Shown here: positions 48,113 to 63,616 of the stretch, piece by piece
Layout of the letters: the number at the start of each line of letters is the position of its first letter
How positions within the stretch are numbered: the first letter of the stretch is position 1
Assembly (NCBI GenBank): GCA_039818205.1
Contig: JBCBUK010000009.1
Location: forward strand, 128,001 to 192,000
DNA from: Verrucomicrobiota bacterium
Lineage (GTDB): Bacteria; Verrucomicrobiota; Verrucomicrobiia; Opitutales; Cerasicoccaceae
Direction: 5' to 3'
DNA length: 64,000 nt
Translations under genes and position numbers: made by a program
Notes under the pieces: generated by a model
The model's input: only the letters and a program-made list of their open reading frames with translations
What the model was told of the DNA's origin: nothing
Database searches by the model: none

Positions 48113-49888
48113 TTAGGAGATCCCCAGCGATTCCAAACGCTTGATCTCGGTGCTCCATTCGAGGCGCTTTTCCGGGCTGTACTCGATGTCTTCCGGGAGA
48201 AGGCTTTTGCGTGTGCAATTAACCAGTGCCTGCAGGGCTTGATAGCGCCGCGTCTCTTCGATTGCCGGGGGGATCAAGTCTTCGATGATCGCCAGGATTT
48301 CTTCGTGGGAAAGCGTCTGCGGTTGTGCACTGAGCTCGCTCCGAATGCCTGCGAACATTGCTGCGGAGTAGTCCCGCATGACCTCGCTGAGTGAATCCAG
48401 TATCTCATCGGTCATGGGCTCTTGGAGAAATTTTTCAACGGTCCAGCGAACAAATGCTCGGTGGTCGTCGCCTTGAGGATCAAGAACCGGGATGATTAGG
48501 CTTCCCGTGCGCCCGGGGCGTCGAATGTCGGGCGACAGCAGGTGAATTCGCGCGGTGATCAGCAGCCAGGTTAGCTTACCTTTCATTCGCGGGTCGGACA
48601 TCAGTTCCTGCATTTTACCGGTCAACCGACGTTCGGTGGCGTGTTCGTTCGCACCGATTCGGCCAAACTGCGTATCTGCCTCATCGACAAAGATCAATGC
48701 TCGGCCAATCGACATCAATACACGGCGCAATTTTTCAAACAGAACATCCGTTTGTCCGAACCATTGGGAGCGAATGTTTTTTATGGTGAGCACCACGATT
48801 CCCAGCTCGCCTGCGACCGCCTCGAAAATATAAGACTTACCCGAACCAATTGGGCCGGCGATCGCGGCTCCAGTCAGCGCGTCTGGTCCGCTGCTACGTA
48901 GGCGCGGAATAAACTGCGTTGTCAGGAATTCTTTGAGCTTGGAAGCACCCACGACGTCGGCCATGGACTGACTCGGCTTTTTAAACTCTATCACACCACT
49001 GCCAATCTGATCGATGATGTAGTCTTCGACTTTCTTGATTACGTCTTCATGGCAGATCGATGTTTCGGAGTAAACGGCTCCCATGAGTAGCTGGCGCAAG
49101 GCATATAGCGATAAGCCTGCGGTAAGCGATGCGAGCTCTTCACTCGACATATCGAGTGAGAGATTCTGTTCATGCTGGTTTTGTTGGAACCAAGAGATAA
49201 AGGCCAATCGTTGATCGCGATCAGGAGCATCGACTTCGATCGCCAGGGTTTGCGGGAGCTGGGTTATGCGATGGTTGATCTGACTCTTGGCCTCGGCAAT
49301 CAGAATGAGTGAGTCGGATGCCTCCGCAAACGCTGGATCTGAGAACCACTCTTGAACGAGGCTTACTCGGTAGCGATCGCGTTCGGAAAGGGAAGCAACG
49401 GTGCCCTCGGGTAAAATGATGTCGGCGCTTTCAACAATAATTATCAACCGGTTTTCGTAGTGGCCTTTGCGGGAAGCGATCGTTAGCTGCCGGAGGATCT
49501 CAAGGGCTTTTAGGCTGTCTCCAATGGCGCTGCGGATACGCTCCTGCAGGCTGGGTGGGCTTGGGTCGACCTGATGCCCGAGCATGACTTTGATTGCCCG
49601 ATCATCTCGACTATCGACACCCCTCAAGGCATCCCATGCTTCCGACAACGGCTCGAGGTGTTCGTCGGGTATGCGAATCAAACCGTTGGGTTCGTAGTGG
49701 ACGACGACATAGCCAGGGAGTGTCCAGCTCTGATCGAGAAGCGCGGTTAAGTTTACATAGTCTTCCGTGTCGCCGCTACGGAACGAAAATAGATCATGCA
49801 CATTTCCGTAGAGGATCAGTGACCGGCTCTGACCAGAATTGATGATGCGCCCTGCGCTGCGTAGAAACTGGTTGTTGTTTTTTGTCAT
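48113..49888 (-). CDS. Classical-clade AAA+ ATPase with degenerate N-terminal AAA-like domain
   Basis: GPIGSGKS, pore loop SQWFGQT, IFVDEAD and SRH DIRRPGR; N-half LILYGNVHD / LIIIVESAD lacks the Walker A Lys. Confidence 0.88.
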   Translation of the reverse strand: MTKNNNQFLRSAGRIINSGQSRSLILYGNVHDLFSFRSGDTEDYVNLTALLDQSWTLPGYVVVHYEPNGLIRIPDEHLEPLSEAWDALRGVDSRDDRAIKVMLGHQVDPSPPSLQERIRSAIGDSLKALEILRQLTIASRKGHYENRLIIIVESADIILPEGTVASLSERDRYRVSLVQEWFSDPAFAEASDSLILIAEAKSQINHRITQLPQTLAIEVDAPDRDQRLAFISWFQQNQHEQNLSLDMSSEELASLTAGLSLYALRQLLMGAVYSETSICHEDVIKKVEDYIIDQIGSGVIEFKKPSQSMADVVGASKLKEFLTTQFIPRLRSSGPDALTGAAIAGPIGSGKSYIFEAVAGELGIVVLTIKNIRSQWFGQTDVLFEKLRRVLMSIGRALIFVDEADTQFGRIGANEHATERRLTGKMQELMSDPRMKGKLTWLLITARIHLLSPDIRRPGRTGSLIIPVLDPQGDDHRAFVRWTVEKFLQEPMTDEILDSLSEVMRDYSAAMFAGIRSELSAQPQTLSHEEILAIIEDLIPPAIEETRRYQALQALVNCTRKSLLPEDIEYSPEKRLEWSTEIKRLESLGIS

Positions 49889-49902
49889 GGTTTAGCTTTC
49901 CA

Positions 49903-50799
49903 TTAACTTACGGTATCCTGGCCATAATCCGAACCAAAAGCCGCCTCGATGACTTTCGATTTCTCCTGGGAAATTACCGTTGAATCTTTTAGGTCGTCGG
50001 GCTTGAAAACGGGTTGAGCTTCGTCAAAAACAATGCTGGCACCGTTGCCGTCCCGTCCCCTCTGGGACAAGCCAATGATTCGGTCGCCGACAAATATTGC
50101 TTCCTCAATCTCGTGTGTGACGATGATAATCGTGTGCGGTGGGCGCTCGCCTTTTTCTTTTGCAACCTGGTTTTGATGGTAGAGCTCGAGCAAGAGACGT
50201 TGAAGGGATTCGCGGGTCGCTTCATCAAGTGCACCGAAGGGTTCGTCCATCAACAATATCTGTGGGCGCATGACCAGGGCCTGAGCAATCGCAACCCGCT
50301 GGCACATGCCGCCTGACAATTCGGTTGGGTAGTTATGCATGGCTTTGGCCAGGCCAACTCGTGTGAGAATCTCTTCGCTCTTTTCGAGATGTGCTTTGCG
50401 CAGCTTGCGCCACGCAAAGGGATTCAACCAGCGAAAGTGGGGCTCCGTTTCGTCTAGCATTAAGCCAAAGGCCACGTTTTGCAATGCGGTGAGATGCGGG
50501 AACAACGAGTAGCGTTGATAGACGATTCCACGATCACGGCCAGGTCCATTAACGCTCATCATCTGATCTGTGTCCTTATTCCAGACTTCGATTGATCCCG
50601 AAGTTGGCTCGAGGGTGCCCACGATGCAATTGAGCAAGGTGGACTTTCCGCAGCCGCTGGGACCAACGAAGGCAACGATTTCTCCAGGCTCGATGGTCGT
50701 ATCGATTTGGTCTAGTACGCGATGACTACCAAACTGCTTGGAAACGTTCTTGATCCGGATCGCGGGGTGCGATTCGGAGGCGTTTACTTCTTGCTCCAT
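49903..50799 (-). CDS. ABC transporter ATP-binding protein (NitT/TauT type)
   Basis: GPSGCGKST, LSGGM, LLMDEPFGALD and VTH. Confidence 0.95.
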   Translation of the reverse strand: MEQEVNASESHPAIRIKNVSKQFGSHRVLDQIDTTIEPGEIVAFVGPSGCGKSTLLNCIVGTLEPTSGSIEVWNKDTDQMMSVNGPGRDRGIVYQRYSLFPHLTALQNVAFGLMLDETEPHFRWLNPFAWRKLRKAHLEKSEEILTRVGLAKAMHNYPTELSGGMCQRVAIAQALVMRPQILLMDEPFGALDEATRESLQRLLLELYHQNQVAKEKGERPPHTIIIVTHEIEEAIFVGDRIIGLSQRGRDGNGASIVFDEAQPVFKPDDLKDSTVISQEKSKVIEAAFGSDYGQDTVS

Positions 50800-51629
50800 G
50801 GACTGATTTGGGTTTGTAGGATCTTGATACCCGCATCGAGGGCGAAGGCCAGAAAAGCCAAAATCAAAAGGTAGGGATAGACGACAGTCATGTCCAACTT
50901 ACGTGAGAATAAGCGGATCGTATAGCCAAAGCCGACATTGGCGACCAGGAGTTCAGCCGCAAGGAGATAGACCAGGGCGGGGCCGATGTTCGATTTGATG
51001 ATCTCCATGATACGGGGTGCCTTGACAGGGAGGAAGGCATCAACGATGACCTCAAGATGCGACGCACCTAGCGAGTAGGCTTTGTACCGCAATTCCTTTG
51101 GAAAGGAGGCAATCTCTTGAGATACACCAATAGCGATAGCCGGCAGAGTCCCGAACACGATCATCGCAATATACATTGTCAGGTTGGTTCCCGCCAAAAC
51201 GAAAAATACCGCTAGTGCCGCGGTTGGAATAATGCGTGACGCCAATCGCAGGGGAAGGACAGCGAGGGACTCAAGGCTGAGGAATGACCCCATCAACACT
51301 CCGAGTAAGAGGCCACCAGCAACGCTGACGCCATACCCGGCGACGAATCGAATCCCTGTGGCCTTGAGATCGCGCCAGAGCATGGGAGCGCGCTCTTCGG
51401 CTTTAACATCCTCGCCCAAAGCGGCAGCTAGTAAGTCATTTTGAGGTTCTGGTTTTTCCAGGATTTGCTTCAACCCTTCGGCGAGACCGGACCACGTAGG
51501 AATGGTTCGATCCTCCGGGTTGTCACGGTGTTTGCTTTCGGAAAGCAGGGTATAGCCGAGCAAAAGCAAAAAGATCGATAGCGCCTGGAGGACCAGGCGC
51601 TTCCGACGGGATATAGGCTGTTGCAGCAT
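50784..51629 (-). CDS. ABC transporter permease (NitT/TauT type)
   Basis: About six TM helices, EAA-like KAYSLGAS and AAELLVANVGFG. Confidence 0.9.
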   Translation of the reverse strand: MLQQPISRRKRLVLQALSIFLLLLGYTLLSESKHRDNPEDRTIPTWSGLAEGLKQILEKPEPQNDLLAAALGEDVKAEERAPMLWRDLKATGIRFVAGYGVSVAGGLLLGVLMGSFLSLESLAVLPLRLASRIIPTAALAVFFVLAGTNLTMYIAMIVFGTLPAIAIGVSQEIASFPKELRYKAYSLGASHLEVIVDAFLPVKAPRIMEIIKSNIGPALVYLLAAELLVANVGFGYTIRLFSRKLDMTVVYPYLLILAFLAFALDAGIKILQTQISPWSKK

Positions 51630-51650
51630 TCGCGGATCGTTTAGCGAAAA

Positions 51651-52682
51651 CTACTTTTTTGCAACCTGCTTAATGTAGGACGGGTCAAAGCTTAGGTTGG
51701 TGCCCGGATTGCTTTTACCGAAGGCTAGACTTGGGTTCTCGGCTACGATTCCTTGTTTGACGCAAAACTTGCTGACCTTGTCCATGGTCTTCGGCAATGC
51801 CTCGCTTTCAAACAGCGCCTGGCCTTTTTCGGGTGTGTCATAGAAGCGAGTTTCTTTGACGATTGTTCGCATATCAGCGAGGCCCAGCTTGGAGAAACGT
51901 TCGCCGAGGGCGATCAATGCTTGATCTCGCGTCTTGCTTTGAGTCATTAACCCACAGAATCGATAGTAAGTATCGATAACGGCGCAGGCAAAGGCTTCAC
52001 CACCTTCCTTGTCGAGTGACTTACGGCTCATGGTGACCATATCAATAATCTCATTCGGAATCGACTTCGAGCTGAAGAGCATCAGTGAGTCCTTGTCCTG
52101 AGACTGAATTTCCAGGCAGAAGGGATTCCAGACAACGATTGCGTCGACCTTGCCTTGGAGGAACGCGGTTGAAGCCGCTGCTGGATCCATCATGCTGAAG
52201 TTGAAGGCCGCTGGATCCATTCCCTGGTCTTCGATGTATCGGTCAAAGAGGTACTGGCTCACTGAGTTCTCTAAGCCATAGACCGGCACCTCTTTGATCT
52301 CGTCGAGCGTGGTGTATTTTTTGGTTACGATGCATTGGTCGGCTCCATCACTGGTGGAGGTTGGGAGGATGGCCACAGATTCGATTTGGAGGCTGGGAGC
52401 CAGCGAATCCATGTTCGTTAGGCAGGCAGCGTCGACTTGTCCGGATCCGTAGAGTGTAATGCACGTGTCGTAGTCTGTCTCAACGAGGACGATGTCGACC
52501 TCCCATTTCTTTTCTATAGGGCCCATCTTGCCTTCATCCATGTTGATGAGTCCAAGGTCGCTCGCAGTCAAAAAGAGGCTCCATGAAGGATACTCGCTGA
52601 CGGCTAGCTTAAAGGTGGGGGCGGCGCTGAGGCTGCCTGCCCCGATAATCAATGAGGTTAAAATCGCGGTGGTTATTTTCAT
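51651..52682 (-). CDS. ABC substrate-binding protein (NMT1/SsuA-like; resembles urea-carboxylase-region SBPs)
   Basis: Signal peptide, SEYPSW, TNMD, STSDGAD, VVWNP and IPNEIID. Confidence 0.85.
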   Translation of the reverse strand: MKITTAILTSLIIGAGSLSAAPTFKLAVSEYPSWSLFLTASDLGLINMDEGKMGPIEKKWEVDIVLVETDYDTCITLYGSGQVDAACLTNMDSLAPSLQIESVAILPTSTSDGADQCIVTKKYTTLDEIKEVPVYGLENSVSQYLFDRYIEDQGMDPAAFNFSMMDPAAASTAFLQGKVDAIVVWNPFCLEIQSQDKDSLMLFSSKSIPNEIIDMVTMSRKSLDKEGGEAFACAVIDTYYRFCGLMTQSKTRDQALIALGERFSKLGLADMRTIVKETRFYDTPEKGQALFESEALPKTMDKVSKFCVKQGIVAENPSLAFGKSNPGTNLSFDPSYIKQVAKK

Positions 52683-52749
52683 GTTCAGTGTGGGTTGGGT
52701 TTCTGATGCAAACAGTCCAAATGGTATTGGACTATTGTTATCTAAAATT

Positions 52750-52766
52750 AAATTGTAACACAATTT
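52750..52766. promoter_or_regulatory. Perfect 7-3-7 palindrome in an internal AT-rich spacer
   Basis: AAATTGT-aac-ACAATTT; second hairpin AGTCCAA-atggta-TTGGACT at about 52714-52733. Confidence 0.45.
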
Positions 52767-52805
52767 CTCCGCAGCTGAGGCTGCTCTAGTGCGCCGGGGC
52801 TGCTT

Positions 52806-53621
52806 TTAGTCAGGTAGCTTGTCGGTGCGCTTGGTCTCAGTTTCGGGCTCTGATTCTTCGACGGGTGCGGATTCCGCGCCAAAAATCAAGTCATCAAACT
52901 CTGACCGAGCAACGCTTTCTTCGGCGAGGTTAAGGAACTCAGCCTCTTCAGCGATAACGTTTGTTCCAGCCAATTCACTGGTGATTTTTGCCTGTGAGCT
53001 AACCTTTTGCACGCGGTCACGGAGAGAAGACAACTGTTCAGCTGAATCGTCCTTACCGATCCCGGCTAGCGCTTCACTGACCTCCCGTTGGTGCTTGGCC
53101 ATAGTGATCTCTGCCACGGCTTGATGCTTTTCGGCTTTGATCTTTTCAAGGTCACGTTGAAAGTTGATCAGCTGTTGCTTGTAGCCGTTAACTTGCTTCT
53201 GTCCCGATTCAATGTCGGATTCCAAATCTTGTAGATGGGACTTCTTTTCTTCGAGTGTTGAGCTGAAGTTCTTGAACGCTTCCATGGCGCGAACGTATTC
53301 CGGGCTAGCGGCGGCTTCTTCTTTGGACAAGCCTTGTGCAGCCTTCTTGGCATAAGCAACCGCGCCAACCTTCTTCTTCTCCAACTCACTAATGTCGGCG
53401 AGCAGCTTTTCGGCTTGGTTGCTCTTACGCTCTTGCTGGGCCATGAGGCCAGCGACGGCATCGCGGATGTCCCGCACTTGGCGTGTCTTTACTTCGATGA
53501 CCTCGTTGTATTCCTCGCGAACAACGTGCGTGTCCTCCGCAATGGAATCGGTTTTCTCATTGATCCGTCCGGTAAAAAGTCGGCCAATGGTTTTAAATAA
53601 ACGGCTGATTGCTTTGATCAT
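52806..53621 (-). CDS. PspA/Vipp1 (IM30) family protein
   Basis: Amphipathic N-helix (ISRLFKTIGRLFTG), long helical hairpin with AVAGLMAQ, late AKITSEL...EAEF helix and acidic tail; 271 aa. Confidence 0.75.
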   Translation of the reverse strand: MIKAISRLFKTIGRLFTGRINEKTDSIAEDTHVVREEYNEVIEVKTRQVRDIRDAVAGLMAQQERKSNQAEKLLADISELEKKKVGAVAYAKKAAQGLSKEEAAASPEYVRAMEAFKNFSSTLEEKKSHLQDLESDIESGQKQVNGYKQQLINFQRDLEKIKAEKHQAVAEITMAKHQREVSEALAGIGKDDSAEQLSSLRDRVQKVSSQAKITSELAGTNVIAEEAEFLNLAEESVARSEFDDLIFGAESAPVEESEPETETKRTDKLPD

Positions 53622-53633
53622 AGTAGAAGTTGA

Positions 53634-54389
53634 TTAATGTTTAAGATGGTAGTCTGGGTTTTCCCAGGATTCGATCTGCTTTTTGACACGCTCGGAAATC
53701 TCAAGTTGGCTTTCCAGTTCCTCACGGATGCGGGCGGTTTCCACCGATTGTTCTTTCTGTTGGTTCTTGATGAATGAAATGATCGTTTTCTCCAGGGATT
53801 GGATACTCGCTTCGGTATCGTTCAGCAGCGCGGTGCGCTGAGCCAAAATTTCTGCGCGTAGTTCGGGGATCTCGGTTTTCTCGGAGCGGTTCCAGAGACT
53901 CCACGATTGTTCGAGATTGGACACGCTTGCCTCGATTAAAACTTCGGATTGCGCCATGATTTCGGCAACTTGATAGGAGGTCGATCTTGGGCTGAGCTCG
54001 TCCTTGAGTGCTTTCTGCAACTGCAGCAATCGATCGAACATCTGCTCGGTTCGCGGATCCTGGTCGCGGGTCAACCGCTGTCGGGTTTCTTGCAGGTAGG
54101 CGGAGGCCTTGGCTTCGATTTCGGCGGTCACATTGTTGAGTAAGCGTTGCTTGACGGCATCGAGATTGCCCCAGGTAAGGCAGACCCGTGTCAGGTAGGC
54201 TCCGAGCGATAATAGGCCGAGGCCCAGCCCAGCCGCTGTAAGCCAAGGTGATGAGCGATTGATAACCCACGGTAAAAAGGTGAGGGGGACGGCAAAGAAC
54301 ATCGGTATCAAGCTGTTGGCCGGCTTGATGAACAATTCGTCCTTGAGTTGTTTGTTCAACCATTGCTTGTTGGGTAACTCATTCTTCAT
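53634..54389 (-). CDS. Two-TM membrane protein with cytoplasmic coiled coil
   Basis: Two N-terminal hydrophobic segments followed by about 180 aa of helical sequence. Confidence 0.75.
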   Translation of the reverse strand: MKNELPNKQWLNKQLKDELFIKPANSLIPMFFAVPLTFLPWVINRSSPWLTAAGLGLGLLSLGAYLTRVCLTWGNLDAVKQRLLNNVTAEIEAKASAYLQETRQRLTRDQDPRTEQMFDRLLQLQKALKDELSPRSTSYQVAEIMAQSEVLIEASVSNLEQSWSLWNRSEKTEIPELRAEILAQRTALLNDTEASIQSLEKTIISFIKNQQKEQSVETARIREELESQLEISERVKKQIESWENPDYHLKH

Positions 54390-54402
54390 GCCTTACCAGC
54401 TG

Positions 54403-55989
54403 CTAATAAGGGATTTGGCCCGCTTCAAAAAGCAAATTCAGCACGGACCAATCATTAACGTCTGATAGTTTCGCCTCGACCCGCAACCGTTCGGAGGGGA
54501 TTCCGTTGGCGATTAGGAAATCGGCGGCGGTGCGGGCCCGCTTCTCCGCAAGCTCTAGCGCGATTGCGTCCAGTTCCGCATTGTCGTTTTTCAGGGATTG
54601 TCCCCGGATGGTAATGTAATAAGAAGGCCAATCCTGGAGGCGTTGAGCAAGGTCGGTTAGCTTGCGCTCATTTTGGAGCGTGATTTTCGCTGACATGCGG
54701 GGAAAGCGAATTTGCTCAACGTGGAAATTGGCCACCGGGCGCAGACGCTGCCATTCGGGATCACTCAGGGCGCGAAGCTTATCGGTGGAATCCGCTGCCT
54801 CAGCGGGTAAGTTCAGGTCGGTGGCAATGATGTTCAGTTTCTTTCTGGGATGGAAACCATCGGCTTTCATACCCTTGAAAATTCGATCAAAGAGGATCGT
54901 GGTTGGATTTCCGTCCAACGGATCTTCCTTTAGCATCCCGACCTGAATCATGATTTTGGTGATTTTCGTGACGATGTCTTCCAGGGATTCGTTCTTTGAA
55001 GGAATGACTCCAAAGTAGCCATAGTTATCGGTGGTGTTTTTCCAGCTGATGCCGTTGACGATGTTCTCGGCGTGTTCGACACTGAGTTTGCCGGTTGGGC
55101 CAGCATCCTTTTGCACGAGGCTGACCATGCTTCCCTCGGATTGGTGAAGGTAAAGAGCCCGGCAATACATCTCGACAAAGATATTAGCGACGTCGGGGTG
55201 CTCTCGAAGAAATTCACGATTCACGACAAGGACATCCATGATGTAGCCGCGCATCTTGGAACTATCGAGCAATACGTGGACGTCGCCAAGTTCCAGAGAT
55301 TCGCTCACCTGGGGCTCCCACAGAACATAGGCCGTTGGCTCATTCGGGCTGGATCCCTTCATTCGCTCAAAGACTTCTTCAGAGCCTTGTTCCTTGATGC
55401 GCCAGTCGTCAGATAGTCGCGGAAAAATAAAACTCTCGATCGTGACCTCCGCCAGAAATTCCGAGGGAGAATCCGGTGTGTAAACGATCCGTGCTTCCGG
55501 GTTGTCCAGGTCTTGCAGGGCGGCTAATCCCTGTTTGTAGGCAACGATGGCATCGGCACCTTGAGTTTCATCGATAACTAACACGATGGTTGCGGGAAAA
55601 CTACCTAGCTTTGCACCGGCCTGGATAAAAGAGTTGATCGGAAATACGGCAAAGTCGGCCTTGTCAGACTCCAGTGCCTGCATGCGTTTCTGATAATTTG
55701 CCTGGTCATCAATGACATCCAGGCGGATTTTTTCATTTTTTAGCAGTTGGCGAAACTCGGGAGAGCGCAGGATGGAATATCCGGAAAACCCATCGGCATA
55801 CAGCGTCACGGTATGATCGTAATTGCTCGATGCGCTGGTGTCTGCGATCAGGCTTTCCTCTTCTTGCTGTTCCTTTTGCTGATTGAGCATCGGTGCGATC
55901 ACGTAGCGATAAGCCACCCCGCCGATCGCGAGCAGAACACACCACGCAATCAGCGCGGCAATAATTCCTTTTTTACTCCGTGTCCCCAT
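54403..55989 (-). CDS. Membrane-anchored NMT1-like solute-binding protein fused to degenerate OmpA-like domain
   Basis: N-terminal TM, DGFSGY, IDETQGADAIV and VLWEP; C-terminal IRF...LAEKRARTAADFLIANGIPSERL. Confidence 0.8.
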   Translation of the reverse strand: MGTRSKKGIIAALIAWCVLLAIGGVAYRYVIAPMLNQQKEQQEEESLIADTSASSNYDHTVTLYADGFSGYSILRSPEFRQLLKNEKIRLDVIDDQANYQKRMQALESDKADFAVFPINSFIQAGAKLGSFPATIVLVIDETQGADAIVAYKQGLAALQDLDNPEARIVYTPDSPSEFLAEVTIESFIFPRLSDDWRIKEQGSEEVFERMKGSSPNEPTAYVLWEPQVSESLELGDVHVLLDSSKMRGYIMDVLVVNREFLREHPDVANIFVEMYCRALYLHQSEGSMVSLVQKDAGPTGKLSVEHAENIVNGISWKNTTDNYGYFGVIPSKNESLEDIVTKITKIMIQVGMLKEDPLDGNPTTILFDRIFKGMKADGFHPRKKLNIIATDLNLPAEAADSTDKLRALSDPEWQRLRPVANFHVEQIRFPRMSAKITLQNERKLTDLAQRLQDWPSYYITIRGQSLKNDNAELDAIALELAEKRARTAADFLIANGIPSERLRVEAKLSDVNDWSVLNLLFEAGQIPY

Positions 55990-55995
55990 GGGTTA

Positions 55996-56739
55996 TTATT
56001 CACCAAGCGGTTGATTACCCGATTCCGAAAGTGCGTCGATTGTTGAAAGTGCCGCATCGTTGTTCGGGAAAAATGCCAGATAGTCGTAAGGGGATTCTCC
56101 TGCTGCATCAAGATCTGTATTGCTGGAGACCTCTGCGATAAAGGTGGTGACGGCGGCATCGAGTGATTTGACGTCTTTGGCGCCAACGTACTGATGAGCC
56201 GCGTCTTTAAGGCTGTGGTCGTTGGCCATGCCGACGCCAATCACGTTTAGTGTAATACCACGGGAGACCAGCTCCGGAGCATAGTTAAGCATCAGCTTGC
56301 CGTCGGTTGATTCGCCATCGGTGATGACTATGAGGCGATAGGTTCCGTAGTTGAACTGCTTAGCACGCTCGGCTAGCAGGCTGTCGGCGCCGGTTTTCAA
56401 GAATGTGCCGAGTGGTGTCTTGCCTCCTTGCTTGATCCGCTTCACCTGTTTGCGCACTTTGGTTTTGTCCAATGGTCCGAGCGGGTACGCCCAACCGTTA
56501 ACGTTCTTGCTAAAAACCAGGAGACCAAATTGCGTATCATCGGGCAGCTTTTTGAGTGCTTGGTAAACGGAGTTTTTCGCTGCTTGCATCTTGCTCTTGT
56601 CATCGATCATACCCGACATGGACCCGGATCCGTCGAGGATTACGACGACGTTGTCCAGATTGTTGCTCTCCTGGGCCTGAAGGGCAGCCGCGCAAAGAGC
56701 ACCCAGTATCAACTGGAAAACTATTTTAAACTTGCTCAT
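55996..56739 (-). CDS. Secreted von Willebrand factor A domain protein
   Basis: Signal peptide; intact MIDAS (DGSGS, GKTPL, ITDGE). Confidence 0.92.
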   Translation of the reverse strand: MSKFKIVFQLILGALCAAALQAQESNNLDNVVVILDGSGSMSGMIDDKSKMQAAKNSVYQALKKLPDDTQFGLLVFSKNVNGWAYPLGPLDKTKVRKQVKRIKQGGKTPLGTFLKTGADSLLAERAKQFNYGTYRLIVITDGESTDGKLMLNYAPELVSRGITLNVIGVGMANDHSLKDAAHQYVGAKDVKSLDAAVTTFIAEVSSNTDLDAAGESPYDYLAFFPNNDAALSTIDALSESGNQPLGE

Positions 56740-56757
56740 AGAGATTTCGGTTAGGCT

Positions 56758-58590
56758 TTAAAAGTCGAAGTCGGAGGAGTTTTGAGCCTCCGCGGAGACA
56801 CGAACCAAGAGGAACTCAACCCGCCGATTTTCCGCGGCTTCGGCAGCATTGGCCGGCTTCGGGTTGACGGGCTCACGGATACCGACACCAACGGCTTGGA
56901 TCTGCGTGATATCAAGCGGGATACCTTCCGCGCCAGCATACTCAGAAATGGCCGATTTAACAGATTCGGCCCGCGAGCGCGATAGGTTGAGACCGGCTTG
57001 CATAACCTGACGTGGGCTTTGGCCCCGGTAGCTCACCCGGTCAAAGGTTCCCTTTTGGATCAACTCGGTCAAATACTTGGTGTTGTTGACGTCCAGGCGA
57101 CGTCCATTGAGGAAGTAATTGTAGTTCCCCTGGCTACCCGTCTGTTTGATGATACCTTCTTCCATCCCGCCACGAACTAAGGTCAGTAGGGTTAGGGTTG
57201 GGTCGGTGTGCCCGCGGACGGCGATAACGGCGTTACCATACTGTTGGACAAGCTCCAGGACTTTGGTGAATTCAACTCCATATTGAACAGCGCTAAACTC
57301 GTTCTGGTTCGGTTCAAACGAAATGACCACGCTGTAGATAACGTTGTTCGCGAGGTCGCCGCTCAAATTCAGCGATTCAAGCTCCTCGAGCGTGGCTTCA
57401 GCGTTAAAGCGTGGCTGCTGAGCCACACTGGTTTTGCTCAGATACTTGGTGAAGGCGTCTGAATTCCAATCGAGGGGCGAGGGCACAAAGCCCTGCCGAA
57501 CCGATGCGTAGCCACGCACTTGGGCGAGATCGAGTGACTTCTTCTGGAAGGCATCGAATCCGCGATAGGGATTGCTGTTGGAAAAGAATGCGATGTTACC
57601 CGGCTGGCCAACAAATGTGCAGTCTAGTAGCAAGCCATGGGCGTCCGCTTCCAGTGAGGGAATCACGTCCTCGCCGTAGATGTCCTGGGTCAATTGCAAG
57701 AGTTCCATGTACTTCTGGTTTCCCTTGGTCTCGTACTCCTTCTGCAGGTCGATGACTTCTTCAGCTGCTTTGAGGTAGCCCGCGGCGAACTTGGTCACCC
57801 AGTCCTTGTTGGCGTTGAACCAATCACCGCGGCATGCGTAGACGTCAGCGATGGAGTAGGAGCGCTCCGCGGTCGAGGCAAGGACCCGGGCACCGCGCAC
57901 GGTTCCCTCGATGCCGTTGCCCATGCTTTGCAGGCCTCCAGTTAAGCCTAGCATATCGGGCGTAATCACAAATGCTACGTCAACGTCGTCGCGTTGGCGA
58001 AAAATCTCGGCCGGGCTGTCGGCGCTACCGGTTAGGTCCTTAGCCCAAACGACATCGATATCGTCCCAGGAAAGACCGGCATCCCGTAGTAAGTCATCCA
58101 ATAGCCCTTCGTGGGGGCCCGCCTTTTGCAATACGACCGTTGCACCTTTGAGGTCCGCGAGTGTCTTGATGTCGTTACGAGCAACCGCATGGTCTCCAGC
58201 ACTCCAGGTCATTTGCATGATGATGACTGGCTTGGTTTCGGGTGAGCTTCCAATGACTTCGGAGGCCATACCAATCATACGATAGGTACCTCGGAGAAAG
58301 GGGCTCTTGCCCTCCATATAGTCGCGAACCTGCTGGACGAAGTCATCACCCGGAACCAGGTCTATATCCAGCCCTTGCTGCGCATAGATACTGCTCTTTT
58401 GGGTTTTGAGGCCACCGTTGGCGTAGAAGGTCGCCATGTCTCCGCCCCAGACGATGAAGGGCACTTGAACTGCCTTGGTTTTGGCGACCGGCTTTACGGT
58501 GACGGGACCAACGACATCTTGGAAGGATTCAGCGTGCAACGGGAGGCTGACAAGCGATAAAACGAAAAGAATAGCGTAAAACTTTTTCAT
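56758..58590 (-). CDS. Exported NMT1-like solute-binding protein fused to OmpA C-terminal domain
   Basis: Signal peptide, TWSAGDH and IADV; FEPNQ, GHTD, LSRSRAESV, GVG and NRRVEF. Confidence 0.85.
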   Translation of the reverse strand: MKKFYAILFVLSLVSLPLHAESFQDVVGPVTVKPVAKTKAVQVPFIVWGGDMATFYANGGLKTQKSSIYAQQGLDIDLVPGDDFVQQVRDYMEGKSPFLRGTYRMIGMASEVIGSSPETKPVIIMQMTWSAGDHAVARNDIKTLADLKGATVVLQKAGPHEGLLDDLLRDAGLSWDDIDVVWAKDLTGSADSPAEIFRQRDDVDVAFVITPDMLGLTGGLQSMGNGIEGTVRGARVLASTAERSYSIADVYACRGDWFNANKDWVTKFAAGYLKAAEEVIDLQKEYETKGNQKYMELLQLTQDIYGEDVIPSLEADAHGLLLDCTFVGQPGNIAFFSNSNPYRGFDAFQKKSLDLAQVRGYASVRQGFVPSPLDWNSDAFTKYLSKTSVAQQPRFNAEATLEELESLNLSGDLANNVIYSVVISFEPNQNEFSAVQYGVEFTKVLELVQQYGNAVIAVRGHTDPTLTLLTLVRGGMEEGIIKQTGSQGNYNYFLNGRRLDVNNTKYLTELIQKGTFDRVSYRGQSPRQVMQAGLNLSRSRAESVKSAISEYAGAEGIPLDITQIQAVGVGIREPVNPKPANAAEAAENRRVEFLLVRVSAEAQNSSDFDF

Positions 58591-58861: not shown

Positions 58862-59491
58862 TTAATCGTCAAAGTGAACGATGCCGTCGCGAATCGCTTT
58901 GATTGCCGCCTGAGTCCGATCTGCCGTTCTCAGTTTATCCAATACCCGCGACACGTGTAGCTTCACGGTGCCTTCCGATATTCCGAGATCCTCCACGATT
59001 TCTTTATTGCTGCGTCCATGGACGATCAGGTGAAGAACCTGATGTTCGCGATCGGTTAGCGATTCACGAGATTCCCGTGTTGAAAGTTTTTCGGCCATTG
59101 CGGCGGGAAAGTAAGTGCCGCCAGCGGCGATCTCGCGAATGGCGTCGAGGACTTCCTCGATATCGCCCCGTTTGTTCAAATAGCCTTGGGCTCCAGCTTG
59201 GACCGCGTTCCAAATGTCTTCTTCGCCCTCAAAGACTGAGAGCAGCACGATCTTTGCATCCGGAAACTCGGCGATGATTTTTTTGGTGCCTTCGATTCCG
59301 TTCTCGCCCGGCATTTGGTAATCCATCGTTACCACGTCGGGGGTCAACTCCCGATAGCAGTTGATGGCGCTCGAACCGTTGTCCGCTTCTCCGACGACCT
59401 CAAGGTCTTCCTCGGATCCGACTGCTTCCGCGAGGCCCATGCGGAGTATGGAGTTATCATCGACAACCATGACTCGGATTTTCTCACTCAT
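58862..59491 (-). CDS. NarL/LuxR-family response regulator
   Basis: VVDD, MD receiver and LTDREHQVL...SNKEI...TVKLHV HTH. Confidence 0.95.
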   Translation of the reverse strand: MSEKIRVMVVDDNSILRMGLAEAVGSEEDLEVVGEADNGSSAINCYRELTPDVVTMDYQMPGENGIEGTKKIIAEFPDAKIVLLSVFEGEEDIWNAVQAGAQGYLNKRGDIEEVLDAIREIAAGGTYFPAAMAEKLSTRESRESLTDREHQVLHLIVHGRSNKEIVEDLGISEGTVKLHVSRVLDKLRTADRTQAAIKAIRDGIVHFDD

Positions 59492-61590
59492 TCTGTTTCG
59501 GGTTTGTTTTGGGGGTCGTAGGGCAGTTCAACGAAAACGTTGGTGCCCTCTCCAATCGTGCTCTCAATTTTAAGGTGCGCTTGGATGCGGTTGGAACGCT
59601 CACGCATCCCTTGCAGGCCGAATCGTTCTGACTTGTCCAATTCGTTCAAATTGAATCCGCTGCCATTGTCAGAAACTCGCAAAATCGTTTTGTTCGGCTG
59701 AAAGTTTAGCTCAATGTGGACTTCCGTGGGCACGGCATGGCGGACCGCGTTAGTGACCGCTTCCGTCGCAATTCTCAATAGATGCCGTTCCTCGTATTGC
59801 TGTAGGCGTCGACGATTGCCTCGGACCGTTAGCTCAATACCCGCCTTACTTTCGATTTTTAACGGGGCAATAGATTCCTGAATGGCATCGGCCAGGTCCA
59901 TCGTTTCCAAGGGGCCACCGCGCAGATCCAGGATCGAGTTGCGGGATTCCTCACGGCAATAGCGCAACATGCCTTGAGCCTGCCGTAGGGCCTCTTTGCC
60001 TTTTTCAGGATCGGAATCGATCTTTCGATTGCAGCTGCGTAACTGCAAAGTCATACCGGCTAGTCCTTGCTCCAGCGTATCGTGTAGGTCGCGAGCAATC
60101 CGCTGGCGCTCCTGTAGAATGGACTCGCGCTCGATCTGGTCGCTAATAATGGCCGTTTGTTTGGCGACGTTCTTTCTTAGTAACACGATCCAAATGAAAA
60201 ATAGCGCGGCGATCGCCAAGACGATGGTCATTAGCCAAAGCAAACGAGCGGTTGTCCACCAGGGGGCGGATTGTAGCACAGCCACTCCATCAAGAGGTCG
60301 CAAATCCAGCCATAGAGACTCCGAGAACATTTGCCACCGAGTATCCTCATTGCGCACGAGATTGCAGATGCCGATTAATTGGAGCACGGCTCCCGCGCGC
60401 AATTCACCGTCGATAGCCATGCCCGTGGGCAGGCGGGCTTCGAAGACGCGATCACCGGCCTGGCAAAGGAGGCTCAATCCGTCGGGTTCTATCGAATCAC
60501 CGGCGGCTTCACTCGAGAATCCAGATAGCCTGAACGATTCTCCAATGTTCACTAAGGTCGCCGTTACTTCGACGAGTTCATAGTTCCAATCGGGGTCGAT
60601 TGGGTCCCGTAGGTCAATCTTGTGCGGCTTGGGTGGGGGACGTTTTTCCAGCACGCTAACTTCCCGAGCTCGAAAGGCCGGGCTAATTGGTTGAGCTTGG
60701 ATGAAACCCAGCATTTCAACGAAATCACCCGGCTCAAGGCTTAGGTTGCCAAGTGTTGTGACTTTGAGGCTAGCCCGTTTTCCTCGAAGGTATAGGCGAT
60801 CCTCGTTTGAGTAGGTGACAAGTCCGCGTGTGTTGAGCGCCTTTTGGTAGTTTGCCCCGGTTCGCATGAGATGCTCGATGGGGCGCAAATCGGTGTAATC
60901 CAACTCGGTGTCTTCGCTGTTTAGAGTAAAGTCGTCCACTGAATTGGTGACGAATACGCGGCCAGTCATCTGCCGGTGCTTGTTGAACACTGTCCCGACG
61001 ACTGCTCGAAATTCTACGCGTTGAAACAACATATCCGAGAGCTGGTCGTAGGCTCCCTTCGAATAGGGAATTTGCACCGTGATGATCGAATCATGTGCTT
61101 CCAGAATAATAGCGATATGGTCCAGGTCTTGCGCAACGCTCAAATCAATGATGCGCCCCCAGGAGTATACCCATTCGGCATCGAGTTCAGTCGACGGGCT
61201 AGTCAGCTCAAATTGGTGAAATTTTCGAGGTTTCGGGAGTGGCCCCCAATCGAGAACTTCCAGCTCATCGCAGTGGATGACGGGGACGAATCCACCCGGT
61301 GAAGAGTGTCCCTTGATCTTGATGATGGAACCTACCGTGAGTTCTTCATTCACATATTTCGTTCCGGGAAGCTCAATGTAGATCCCGAGTTCTCCGTCGA
61401 AGATGAAGCCCCCGTTCCGGCGGGGATTCAAATGGATAACCTGGGCCTCAATTTCGACCGTAATTTTTTGGGCGGCGGTTGTGGGGTCTAGATTCTTGAC
61501 GGCCTTGATCGTCGTAATGGTCGCGCCAGAACAGACCGTGAACGATAGAGCGCTCAGGAGTATGATGACCAGGGCTTTGCGAACGAGCAT
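59488..61590 (-). CDS. Sensor histidine kinase (HisKA_3) with large periplasmic region
   Basis: ERQRIARDLHDTLEQ, EAVTNAVRHA, DNGSGF and GLQGMRER; single TM after PWWT. Confidence 0.93.
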   Translation of the reverse strand: MLVRKALVIILLSALSFTVCSGATITTIKAVKNLDPTTAAQKITVEIEAQVIHLNPRRNGGFIFDGELGIYIELPGTKYVNEELTVGSIIKIKGHSSPGGFVPVIHCDELEVLDWGPLPKPRKFHQFELTSPSTELDAEWVYSWGRIIDLSVAQDLDHIAIILEAHDSIITVQIPYSKGAYDQLSDMLFQRVEFRAVVGTVFNKHRQMTGRVFVTNSVDDFTLNSEDTELDYTDLRPIEHLMRTGANYQKALNTRGLVTYSNEDRLYLRGKRASLKVTTLGNLSLEPGDFVEMLGFIQAQPISPAFRAREVSVLEKRPPPKPHKIDLRDPIDPDWNYELVEVTATLVNIGESFRLSGFSSEAAGDSIEPDGLSLLCQAGDRVFEARLPTGMAIDGELRAGAVLQLIGICNLVRNEDTRWQMFSESLWLDLRPLDGVAVLQSAPWWTTARLLWLMTIVLAIAALFFIWIVLLRKNVAKQTAIISDQIERESILQERQRIARDLHDTLEQGLAGMTLQLRSCNRKIDSDPEKGKEALRQAQGMLRYCREESRNSILDLRGGPLETMDLADAIQESIAPLKIESKAGIELTVRGNRRRLQQYEERHLLRIATEAVTNAVRHAVPTEVHIELNFQPNKTILRVSDNGSGFNLNELDKSERFGLQGMRERSNRIQAHLKIESTIGEGTNVFVELPYDPQNKPETE

Positions 61591-61930: not shown

Positions 61931-63616
61931 ATGTCATTTCATTCTCTTGATTTTTTCAAAATTTCCGCGGTCGCTCTTGCACCATTAGCGATCGTTCCTG
62001 AAGTCTTTGGCACCCAGGCTTACTACGATTTGACGGTCTACAACGACTTTGCCAATGGCGAATATTATGGTGCCACCCCGTCAAGCTCTGACATCTGGTT
62101 GTTGAGCAATTTCGAATTCGATTACAACACTTCATCTGGATTCGTTAAGGGCAATTCGAGCGCCGGTACCTATGGTACGGCGGTTCGGCTGAGCGATATT
62201 GACGGCGGAAAAATGCGCATCTACTCCACTGATGGTGGCACACGCATCTATTCGGTACTTAGCCAAGGCAGTACCGCTCCGACCTTCTCCGATTTGGACT
62301 CGAAGCCAAATAACTATTTTGAGTGGAGCTTCTCCAGTAGTAATCCGGGTACCCTCGATATGAGTTGGATTGACAGCTTCGACTATCTGTCGCGCTTGAA
62401 GGTATCAGCGAAGGGAACGTCTAGTCCGGCACCAACAATCGTTACCTTTGGTGCGGGCTCTTCGAAAACAACGCAACAAGTTGGCAGCGCGTTGAATACG
62501 TATGTGAATCAAACGGGAGGAAATTACTCTTGGTTGGGAACCAGTGGCTATTCTACATCGATAAGCTATACCGGGGCTACCAACGCTGTTCGATGGATTA
62601 CCAATAATTCCGGTACGGCTGGGTCCATCAATGCTCAGAACAACAAGAGCTACACGCGGGGATTGGATAATATCATCACCGAAGCGAGTAACAGCACGCA
62701 TGTTTGGAAGGCCGGAACTCCCGCCACGGGTCCGAACTGGACCGACAAGGGATTCCGTATATCAGGTTTGCAAGGAGTCAGTCCGCCGGATGGTTCAACG
62801 CTGTCCGATACAGCAACGATGTGGTCAGCCTACGTCAACTTCACCAAGGATCAGGGGACGGGCAAATACACGATGGTGGTCACCGAATTCACGATCTATG
62901 GCGGAACGGGAACCAATGCATCGTATAAGCAGTTATGGACTGCTGGTGCTACGACCTACTCGGTGACCCAAGATGATGGTGCCCTTGACGCGATTTGGAC
63001 TTCAAGTGTCAACAACTTGTCGAGCACACCGGCTTGGATTACGAACCTTGGCGCGAACAACAACAACTTATTCTACGCGCTCTATAATGCCATCGCCTCG
63101 GGCGTCATCTACAATGATGACTTTGTGAGCGACACTACCTTACCGAGCTGGACGGGTTACGTTCCCTACGTAGCAGGTCAGCAAATCTATAATTTCGAAA
63201 TCCTGTTTCAGGGTGGTCAGGTTGACCAAAGTACCTATCCAGGTGGATTGACGGGCAATCTGACCGGGACGGATTTGGTCGCATTGATGAAAGCGCGGGA
63301 CTCCGCGGATGACCTTATCAATCCTTACTTTCTGGAGCTTCTCAGCGTAATGCACCAAACGCCGGCCTATTTGTTTCCTTCCCAGGATTTCTGGGGATCT
63401 GAGTCTCTCGGCAGCGATTCTTATATTGGCCTTCAGCCAGGTCCGCTCAACGGTGATGATGTGTTTGGAGATGCGACGTTTGATTGGTATCTCGGGAGCA
63501 AAGGAAGCGACCTGGTCATCCCAGAACCGCGCACTGCAGTTGCTTTTGGAGCCGGAGCACTTGCCCTCGCGGTTTACATGCGACGACGAAGAAAAGGGCA
63601 GAAATCCGAATCTTAG
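61931..63616 (+). CDS. Large PEP-CTERM protein with possible GH64/thaumatin-like domain
   Basis: Signal peptide; C-terminal IPEP + TM + RRRRK; motifs RIY, YFEW..WIDSF and NPY...AYLFP. Confidence 0.8.
   Translation: MSFHSLDFFKISAVALAPLAIVPEVFGTQAYYDLTVYNDFANGEYYGATPSSSDIWLLSNFEFDYNTSSGFVKGNSSAGTYGTAVRLSDIDGGKMRIYSTDGGTRIYSVLSQGSTAPTFSDLDSKPNNYFEWSFSSSNPGTLDMSWIDSFDYLSRLKVSAKGTSSPAPTIVTFGAGSSKTTQQVGSALNTYVNQTGGNYSWLGTSGYSTSISYTGATNAVRWITNNSGTAGSINAQNNKSYTRGLDNIITEASNSTHVWKAGTPATGPNWTDKGFRISGLQGVSPPDGSTLSDTATMWSAYVNFTKDQGTGKYTMVVTEFTIYGGTGTNASYKQLWTAGATTYSVTQDDGALDAIWTSSVNNLSSTPAWITNLGANNNNLFYALYNAIASGVIYNDDFVSDTTLPSWTGYVPYVAGQQIYNFEILFQGGQVDQSTYPGGLTGNLTGTDLVALMKARDSADDLINPYFLELLSVMHQTPAYLFPSQDFWGSESLGSDSYIGLQPGPLNGDDVFGDATFDWYLGSKGSDLVIPEPRTAVAFGAGALALAVYMRRRRKGQKSES

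Follow-up and report, generated by a model that had tools for sequence, protein, structure and literature searches.

The locus described here raises the question of whether an AAA+ ATPase encoded in one operon with a PspA-like protein acts on polymers of this protein in the way in which Vps4 acts on ESCRT-III. The two genes are located on the minus strand of a 64,000-nucleotide stretch of the contig JBCBUK010000009.1 from a Verrucomicrobiota bacterium, hereafter called the window, and are enclosed by the positions 48113..53621. The initial annotation, made from the sequence alone, had described them as a candidate bacterial ESCRT-III/Vps4-analogous pair, and both reading frames were confirmed at these bounds. 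The system is real and conserved. Its pairing and the analogy to Vps4 have already been predicted by Ravi et al. 2024 (PMC11237479); the present analysis adds the tail motif with its controls, the pattern of tail motifs among subclades, the co-occurrence of both subfamilies in 21 of 21 genomes and a caveat concerning the sensor-1 residue. Building on the fold and motifs of the ATPase, the co-inheritance of the pair, its occurrence as a two-gene unit and the conserved end of the PspA tail, we give an even chance to the view that the ATPase is a dedicated remodeller of its cognate PspA, catalyzing tail-directed remodelling or disassembly of PspA polymers.

Co-inheritance of the two genes and the conserved PspA tail

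The two genes in question are the following:
48113..49888, minus strand: tandem classical-clade AAA+ ATPase of 591 aa, with a degenerate D1 module (about aa 1-296) and a D2 module with intact motifs
52806..53621, minus strand: PspA/IM30-family protein of a divergent subfamily, 271 aa

Both subfamilies were found in the identical 7 of 401 genomes of the window's phylum and, at close-subfamily scores, in the identical 14 of 301 genomes of the phylum to which a Pirellulaceae genome belongs. All 21 genomes are concordant for the two subfamilies, no genome among the 702 of both phyla is discordant, and 20 of the 21 pairs lie on a single contig no more than 8 kb apart. Orthologues occurring mostly without PspA, the outcome that would speak against the functional pairing claimed in the initial annotation, were not what was found, and the pairing is well supported. 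Gene neighbourhoods were counted in the best 80 GTDB loci of 519 confirmed ATPase matches. PspA is located beside the ATPase in 66 of these 80 loci, and all nine genes of the operon described below are present in order in 27. Fourteen loci are without PspA; 12 of them end at contig ends, and PspA is present in all four genomes tested. The genes of the ATP-binding cassette (ABC) importer of the operon are missing from 32 of the 66 loci with PspA. In two of five tested genomes that have only the pair at the locus, three accessory proteins gave no match anywhere in the genome, namely the binding protein, the large OmpA fusion and the 251-aa possible anchor, and the tail motif of PspA is kept; the other three contain some of the accessory genes elsewhere. 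This shows that the ATPase and PspA form a minimal two-gene unit in some genomes. The record titles of the loci name Verrucomicrobiota, Planctomycetota, Poribacteria, Hydrogenedentota, Sumerlaeota, Acidobacteriota and others.

Judged by its sequence profile and its predicted structure, the PspA protein of the operon belongs to the PspA/IM30 family of the ESCRT-III superfamily. It passes the Pfam family PF04012 narrowly (34.9 bits, gathering score 33.9). The best Protein Data Bank (PDB) matches of the family profile are Vipp1/PspA (E 8e-5), and the top Foldseek match of the protein model is Vipp1 (E 3e-4). The AlphaFold2 (AF2) model contains helices at residues 2-16, 31-95, 107-188, 194-239 and 242-247, which give an amphipathic helix at the N-terminus, a long hairpin and helices at the C-terminus, with high pLDDT in the hairpin only. 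Two regions of the protein are of importance for the following discussion:
53568..53621, minus strand: N-terminal amphipathic helix of PspA (hydrophobic moment 0.77, the highest of all 18-residue windows; median 0.28)
52809..52880, minus strand: disordered acidic tail of PspA, a variable linker followed by the conserved [LI]P-x motif (52809-52817)

The tail is disordered from about residue 245. It had been noted as acidic and ending in KLPD; the LPD end was confirmed and is a feature of the whole family. In 67 of 67 proteins, the tail consists of a variable, mostly acidic linker and ends with [LI]P plus one or two residues. The same terminal motif was found in 6 of 6 and 13 of 13 further proteins, from partly overlapping genomes. 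Column conservation reaches 0.73 at the last four tail residues, compared with 0.38 in the linker. None of 25 ordinary PspAs carries the motif, and their chain stops a few residues past the last helix. These proteins are part of a control set of 30 Pfam PspA loci from a 121-genome sample, which further comprises four loci of a third ATPase-linked type and one of unclear type. The two other PspA genes of the window's own genome (G000:C2:553984-554625 and C14:14928-15557) also encode proteins that are short past the last helix and without the terminal motif. When the full ATPase was modelled together with PspA residues 215-271, the predicted complex scored 0.23 against a mark of 0.32; the controls were not folded, and the prediction is weighed neither way.

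More distant ATPases are linked to PspA-like proteins with other tail ends. The sister subfamily (L111-L116, L164) has a Pfam-negative PspA-like gene, which shows an HHalign probability of 72% to the window PspA, and the tail of its product ends with [RK]Q[KR]I-x-E in 7 of 7 cases. A third PspA type (L156-L170, L217-L234) has a K-x-hydrophobic-G tail motif, the K and G of which are invariant in 11 of 11 aligned proteins; the strict pattern is present in 5 of 8 further loci (two being repeats), and the motif occurs twice in one protein (L166). In a 34-row tree, the LP-x and QKI tail types each correspond to one ATPase clade, and members of the third type fall on several branches. Among 27 loci with a distant ATPase, a PspA-like gene was found nearby in 17, elsewhere in the genome in 7 and not at all in 3. 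One of the 17 nearby genes is a 153-aa partial open reading frame, and seven are Pfam-negative or unscanned and were assigned by profile. The suggestion that the wider ATPase clade is often free of PspA was weakened, as a cognate PspA was found elsewhere in 7 of the 10 genomes of this kind that were tested.

The spread of the pair is patchy, and the ATPase was found in none of 12 same-family and none of 5 same-genus genomes. Such a spread would be expected of a mobile cassette, and the pair might be a co-transferred stress cassette whose products are not in direct contact. The tail motif would then bind a chaperone, a protease or PspA itself. For VIPP1, the partner bound by the tail is an Hsp70 (PMC12798727). 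However, the pair persists through the loss or reshuffling of every other gene, and a PspA of the cognate type is kept in seven wider-clade genomes even though it is unlinked. We regard a cassette without contact as quite improbable.

Several single records are of interest in their own right. The GC content of the operon (48113-58590) is 0.526 and that of the genome 0.527, though none of the five same-genus genomes gave the ATPase. A viral IMG/VR fragment (L001, about 20% complete) encodes a close ATPase orthologue with 50% identity, and no PspA of this subfamily was found in its 51 kb. The ATPase match in L183 (G470:C57) has one internal TAG stop and represents a broken gene or an assembly error. 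The operon is rearranged in L171 (G638:C5), where the ATPase gene comes first and the OmpA fusions follow. The full nine-gene operon is also found on a record titled Bathyarchaeia (L065); the sample of the phylum to which its genome belongs looks bacterial, with genomes of 3-8 Mb and none of 61 passing the CdvC cut-off, and the title may be wrong.

The tandem ATPase and a proposed mechanism

The ATPase contains the following modules and motifs:
49001..49888, minus strand: dead D1 module with an AAA fold; it lacks the Walker A lysine, the Walker B DE and an aromatic pore loop
48833..48856, minus strand: Walker A of D2, GPIGSGKS, K351
48749..48769, minus strand: pore loop 1 of D2, SQWFGQT, W376 and F/Y377
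48680..48697, minus strand: Walker B of D2, LIFVDE, D402 and E403
48548..48556, minus strand: sensor-1 region T-A-R, with Ala where VAT/p97 carry Asn
48509..48523, minus strand: arginine-finger motif RRPGR

The Walker motifs, the SQWFGQT pore loop, the RRPGR motif and an inactive AAA-like domain preceding the active one had all been read from the sequence, and all were found in place. The alignment used here covers 77 of the 120 ATPase homologues listed. K351, W376, G378, D402, E403, R456, R457 and R460 are invariant in 77 of 77, and position 377 is F or Y throughout, so that pore loop 1 fits the X-Ar-phi-X type. A loop of the X-Ar-phi type is characteristic of protein translocases (PMC5039278). 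An extra arginine directly before the finger marks the meiotic clade of Vps4/CdvC. R456 and R457 are adjacent, but VAT has the identical RRPGR string, which therefore does not discriminate.

The AF2 model of the ATPase has a pLDDT of 91 and aligns over its full length to D1-D2 of Rix7, VAT and p97. Compared with D1-D2 tandem structures, the full model reaches a TM score of up to 0.56 (Z 19.7, rmsd 5.0, 452 residues aligned). With the D2 module alone, FtsH, Vps4, spastin and p97 are tied at Z 18-19 (Vps4 6ap1: Z 18.8, rmsd 3.0, 259 residues aligned). D1 is weakly homologous to its own D2 (HHalign E 1.7e-4, 189 columns, probability 49.5%) and carries many residues that are invariant across the homologues despite its dead catalytic motifs. 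It is a candidate docking or oligomerisation tier.

The phylogenetic position of the ATPase was assessed by family models and by trees of 30 chosen rows (D2), of the 34 rows mentioned above and, as a quick tree, of 65 of 138 domains, which comprised every third representative and omitted 9 proteins without a Walker A pattern match. The ATPase scores 30.5 bits with the CdvC model NF041006 (cut-off 650) and 43 with the CDC48 model TIGR01243 (cut-off 803), and neither a sigma54-activator AAA nor a helix-turn-helix (HTH) domain was matched in Pfam or NCBIfam. In the 30-row D2 tree, which is unrooted and without authentic Vps4 or CdvC, the PspA-linked ATPases lie on one side of a branch with 100/96 support. 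Closest to them in the tree are plasmid AAA proteins and a Nostoc plasmid protein that we take to be Ycf46-like from its DUF1257/DUF2997 neighbours. The plasmid relatives share 22-25% identity, have no annotated PspA neighbour and fall outside the PspA-linked clade; the closest named relatives, with 61% identity, are encoded in Puniceicoccaceae genomes. For the phylogeny, the initial annotation had left a choice between Vps4, CDC48 and Ycf46-like clades. The Ycf46-like row is on the side of the PspA-linked ATPases of a 99/98 branch, though not as their sister, and the CDC48, FtsH-like and TPR-Vps4-like rows are on the other side. A grouping with three bacterial TPR-AAA Vps4-like proteins was rejected in the same tree (p-AU 4e-5). 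The ATPase is not a Vps4 orthologue. The earlier description as Vps4-analogous stands as an analogy only, in view of the missing MIT domain, the tandem architecture and the CdvC score.

We propose the following course of events. PspA would attach to the inner membrane by means of the amphipathic helix at its N-terminus and polymerise like PspA/Vipp1, leaving the acidic tail of 25-35 residues exposed. A hexamer of the ATPase would recognise the terminal [LI]P-x motif, probably by the dead D1 tier in place of the MIT domain of Vps4. The D2 ring would then grip the tail by its Trp-Phe pore loop and thread it, and ATP-driven extraction of subunits would lead to the remodelling, disassembly or recycling of the polymer. 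A precedent exists in VIPP1, the tail of which recruits a chaperone that disassembles VIPP1 (PMC12798727).

Several points weigh against this remodelling. The sensor-1 Asn is replaced by Ala in 77 of 77 homologues, and a polar sensor-1 residue is described as critical for ATP hydrolysis (PMC5039278). An invariant Thr beside the Ala may or may not substitute for it. The ATPase has no MIT domain (no match at E 0.05), residues 1-296 forming an AAA fold in the model, and no pore aromatic is present in D1. Linkage in the wider clade is looser: the cognate PspA is unlinked in 7 of the 27 loci, and in 3 it was found neither near the gene nor by the profile used. A further genome of the second phylum, the fifteenth (G512), encodes an intermediate ATPase and PspA on separate contigs, and this unlinked PspA is without the terminal motif. 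The subclade-specific tails would fit a docking code and would also follow from shared descent. Finally, related genomes do not count as independent cases, and for this reason no p-value is given for the co-occurrence; of the 32 loci without ABC genes, 23 are titled Poribacteria.

The ATPase might also have a different role. It might bind PspA as an assembly factor or holdase that is slow or switched by nucleotide, and that keeps PspA unpolymerised or nucleates its assembly at the membrane without processive threading. The clade-wide loss of the sensor-1 Asn (Ala in the close family, Ser in the sister ATPase groups), the dead D1 and the inhibition of PspA assembly by bound PspF (PMC7619361) are in favour of such a role. 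It does not agree well with the finding that all 77 homologues keep Walker A and B, the two arginine fingers and the Trp of the pore loop, as a pure holdase has no need to retain a pore aromatic. We consider this role unlikely. Dedicated remodelling of PspA could, in its boldest form, make the ATPase a bacterial equivalent of Vps4 that evolved independently from a tandem AAA+ protein with a dead D1. The D1 ring, in the place of MIT, would read the tail code of PspA (LP-x, QKI-x-E or K-x-hydrophobic-GP, depending on the subclade) and PspA would be disassembled, with hydrolysis proceeding without the sensor-1 Asn, perhaps only when substrate is engaged. This form is put forward tentatively, and we are inclined to doubt it.

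The operon and its accessory genes

The pair is part of a nine-gene operon that reads on the minus strand from 58590 to 48113, with intergenic gaps of -16 to 123 bases. PspA is the fifth and the AAA+ gene the ninth gene; the two are not adjacent, and three ABC-importer genes occupy the 2.9 kb between them. Upstream of PspA are two binding-protein/OmpA fusions, a von Willebrand factor A (vWA) gene and a gene for a membrane coiled-coil protein. From the first gene to the last, the order is binding-protein/OmpA fusion, vWA, membrane-anchored binding-protein/OmpA fusion, 251-aa membrane coiled-coil protein, PspA, free binding protein, permease, ABC ATPase and AAA+. The seven accessory genes are as follows:
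56758..58590, minus strand: binding-protein (NMT1-like) and OmpA-like fusion, 610 aa; first operon gene
55996..56739, minus strand: vWA-domain protein with a signal-peptide-like N-terminus, 247 aa
54403..55989, minus strand: membrane-anchored binding-protein and OmpA-like fusion, 528 aa
53634..54389, minus strand: 251-aa protein without a Pfam family, in which a helical domain comes after two hydrophobic segments
51651..52682, minus strand: free substrate-binding protein, NMT1/THI5-like, likely start 52682 (TIGR03427 140 bits, under the cut-off of 334)
50784..51629, minus strand: ABC permease (BPD_transp_1)
49903..50799, minus strand: ABC ATPase of the NitT/TauT-like importer type

PspA might instead be an adaptor or regulator that brings the motor to the membrane, where it would act on a different client. 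Candidates for the client are the ABC importer, damaged membrane proteins and the membrane coiled-coil protein. All nine genes are in order in 27 of the 80 loci. The sister loci contain the PspA-like gene, usually followed by an OmpA fusion and often by permease and ABC ATPase genes, a membrane coiled-coil gene and the AAA gene, so that the sister subfamily independently has the same kinds of partners. The tandem fold moreover resembles that of the extractases p97 and Rix7. Against an adaptor role are the 32 of 66 loci without ABC genes and the two of five tested genomes without matches to three accessory genes; a fixed client encoded in the operon is therefore not required. The adaptor role is considered improbable. 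That the ATPase serves the ABC transporter alone was rejected, because the ABC genes are missing from these 32 loci. If the ATPase remodels PspA, the ABC importer, the wall-binding OmpA fusions and the possible anchor would be dispensable partners that the long operon co-expresses with this membrane module.

The 251-aa protein is a possible membrane anchor for PspA. Its nearest named Atlas family, PspM/Rv2743c, is a weak lead at 0.85, below the bar of 0.9. It has the topology of the membrane-anchored Snf7 type, but none of 14 members scanned gave a Snf7/PspA match, and the HHalign probability of the family is 0.6% to the sister transmembrane (TM) protein and 3% to PspA. The genes upstream of PspA in the loci L023 and L069 are unrelated to this family and were dropped.

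Promoter and terminator scans of the operon gave results at chance level. Directly upstream and on the same strand (58862-61590 of the window, minus strand) are the genes of a LuxR-type response regulator and a HisKA_3 kinase; these two genes are not a conserved neighbour in related loci, although the 10-kb flanks mostly stop short of their position. The positions 61931-63616 on the plus strand encode a 561-aa protein without a Pfam family, the C-terminus of which we take to be PEP-CTERM-like.

Comparison with known systems

The system described by Ravi et al. 2024 (PMC11237479) consists of PspA and an AAA+ protein with two modules, of which the N-terminal copy is inactive (examples AEY64321.1 and OGG56892.1). 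Its operons also encode an ABC ATPase, a permease and a periplasmic-binding-protein (PBPB)-OmpA fusion, and a Snf7/VPS4-like remodelling was proposed for it. The window shares the pair, the dead N-terminal module, the ABC ATPase, the permease and the PBPB-OmpA genes. The order of their long example (PspA, PBPB+OmpA, permease, ABC ATPase, TM+Snf7, AAA) is that of the sister subfamily. In contrast to that example, the window operon has two OmpA fusions together with genes for a vWA protein and a free binding protein, and its membrane coiled-coil gene is located upstream of PspA. No mention of the tail motif or the sensor-1 change was found in the consulted parts of its text and supplement. No experimental study of the PspA/tandem-AAA pair was found in the literature searched, most subscription papers lying outside it. 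In a 2025 review, a Vps4-like ATPase appears to be absent from bacteria and the regulation of PspA polymers is left open (PMC7619361), and Junglas et al. suggest only chaperones or PspF as regulators of PspA polymers (PMC11746142). Since the pairing and the hypothesis are already published, the value of the present system lies in its testability and not in its discovery. Two proteins that stand alone in some genomes allow the regulation of PspA polymers to be tested directly. Exact mutants and swap controls are provided by the conserved tail end together with the subclade-specific motifs.

PspF and PspA of proteobacteria are likewise an AAA+ protein co-inherited with PspA, but PspF is a sigma54 activator of the NtrC type with HTH (PMC11237479), and the window ATPase has no such Pfam domain. 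CDC48/p97/VAT and Rix7 share the D1-D2 tandem and are the best PDB matches of the window ATPase in sequence and fold; the latter differs from them in the lack of an N domain, in its dead D1 and in its separate place in the D2 tree. The Ycf46-like protein is of similar length, with similarity reaching upstream of the active module, whereas it retains the sensor-1 Asn, has no PspA among its annotated neighbours and lies beyond the 100/96 branch. The window's genome also encodes a separate TPR-AAA protein (G000:C7, locus L082 1042-3767) with AAA_lid_3 and 190 bits to the CdvC model, beside a TPR gene and without a PspA match on its contig. It resembles the bacterial VPS4-like type of Ravi et al. 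(PMC11237479). With Vps4/CdvC, the window ATPase has in common the classical AAA clade, the aromatic-hydrophobic pore loop and a partner from the ESCRT-III superfamily with an exposed C-terminal tail. It differs from them in having two modules and not one, no MIT domain, no sensor-1 Asn and 30.5 of the 650 bits of the CdvC cut-off. The system may thus work like ESCRT-III/Vps4 though its ATPase is not a Vps4.

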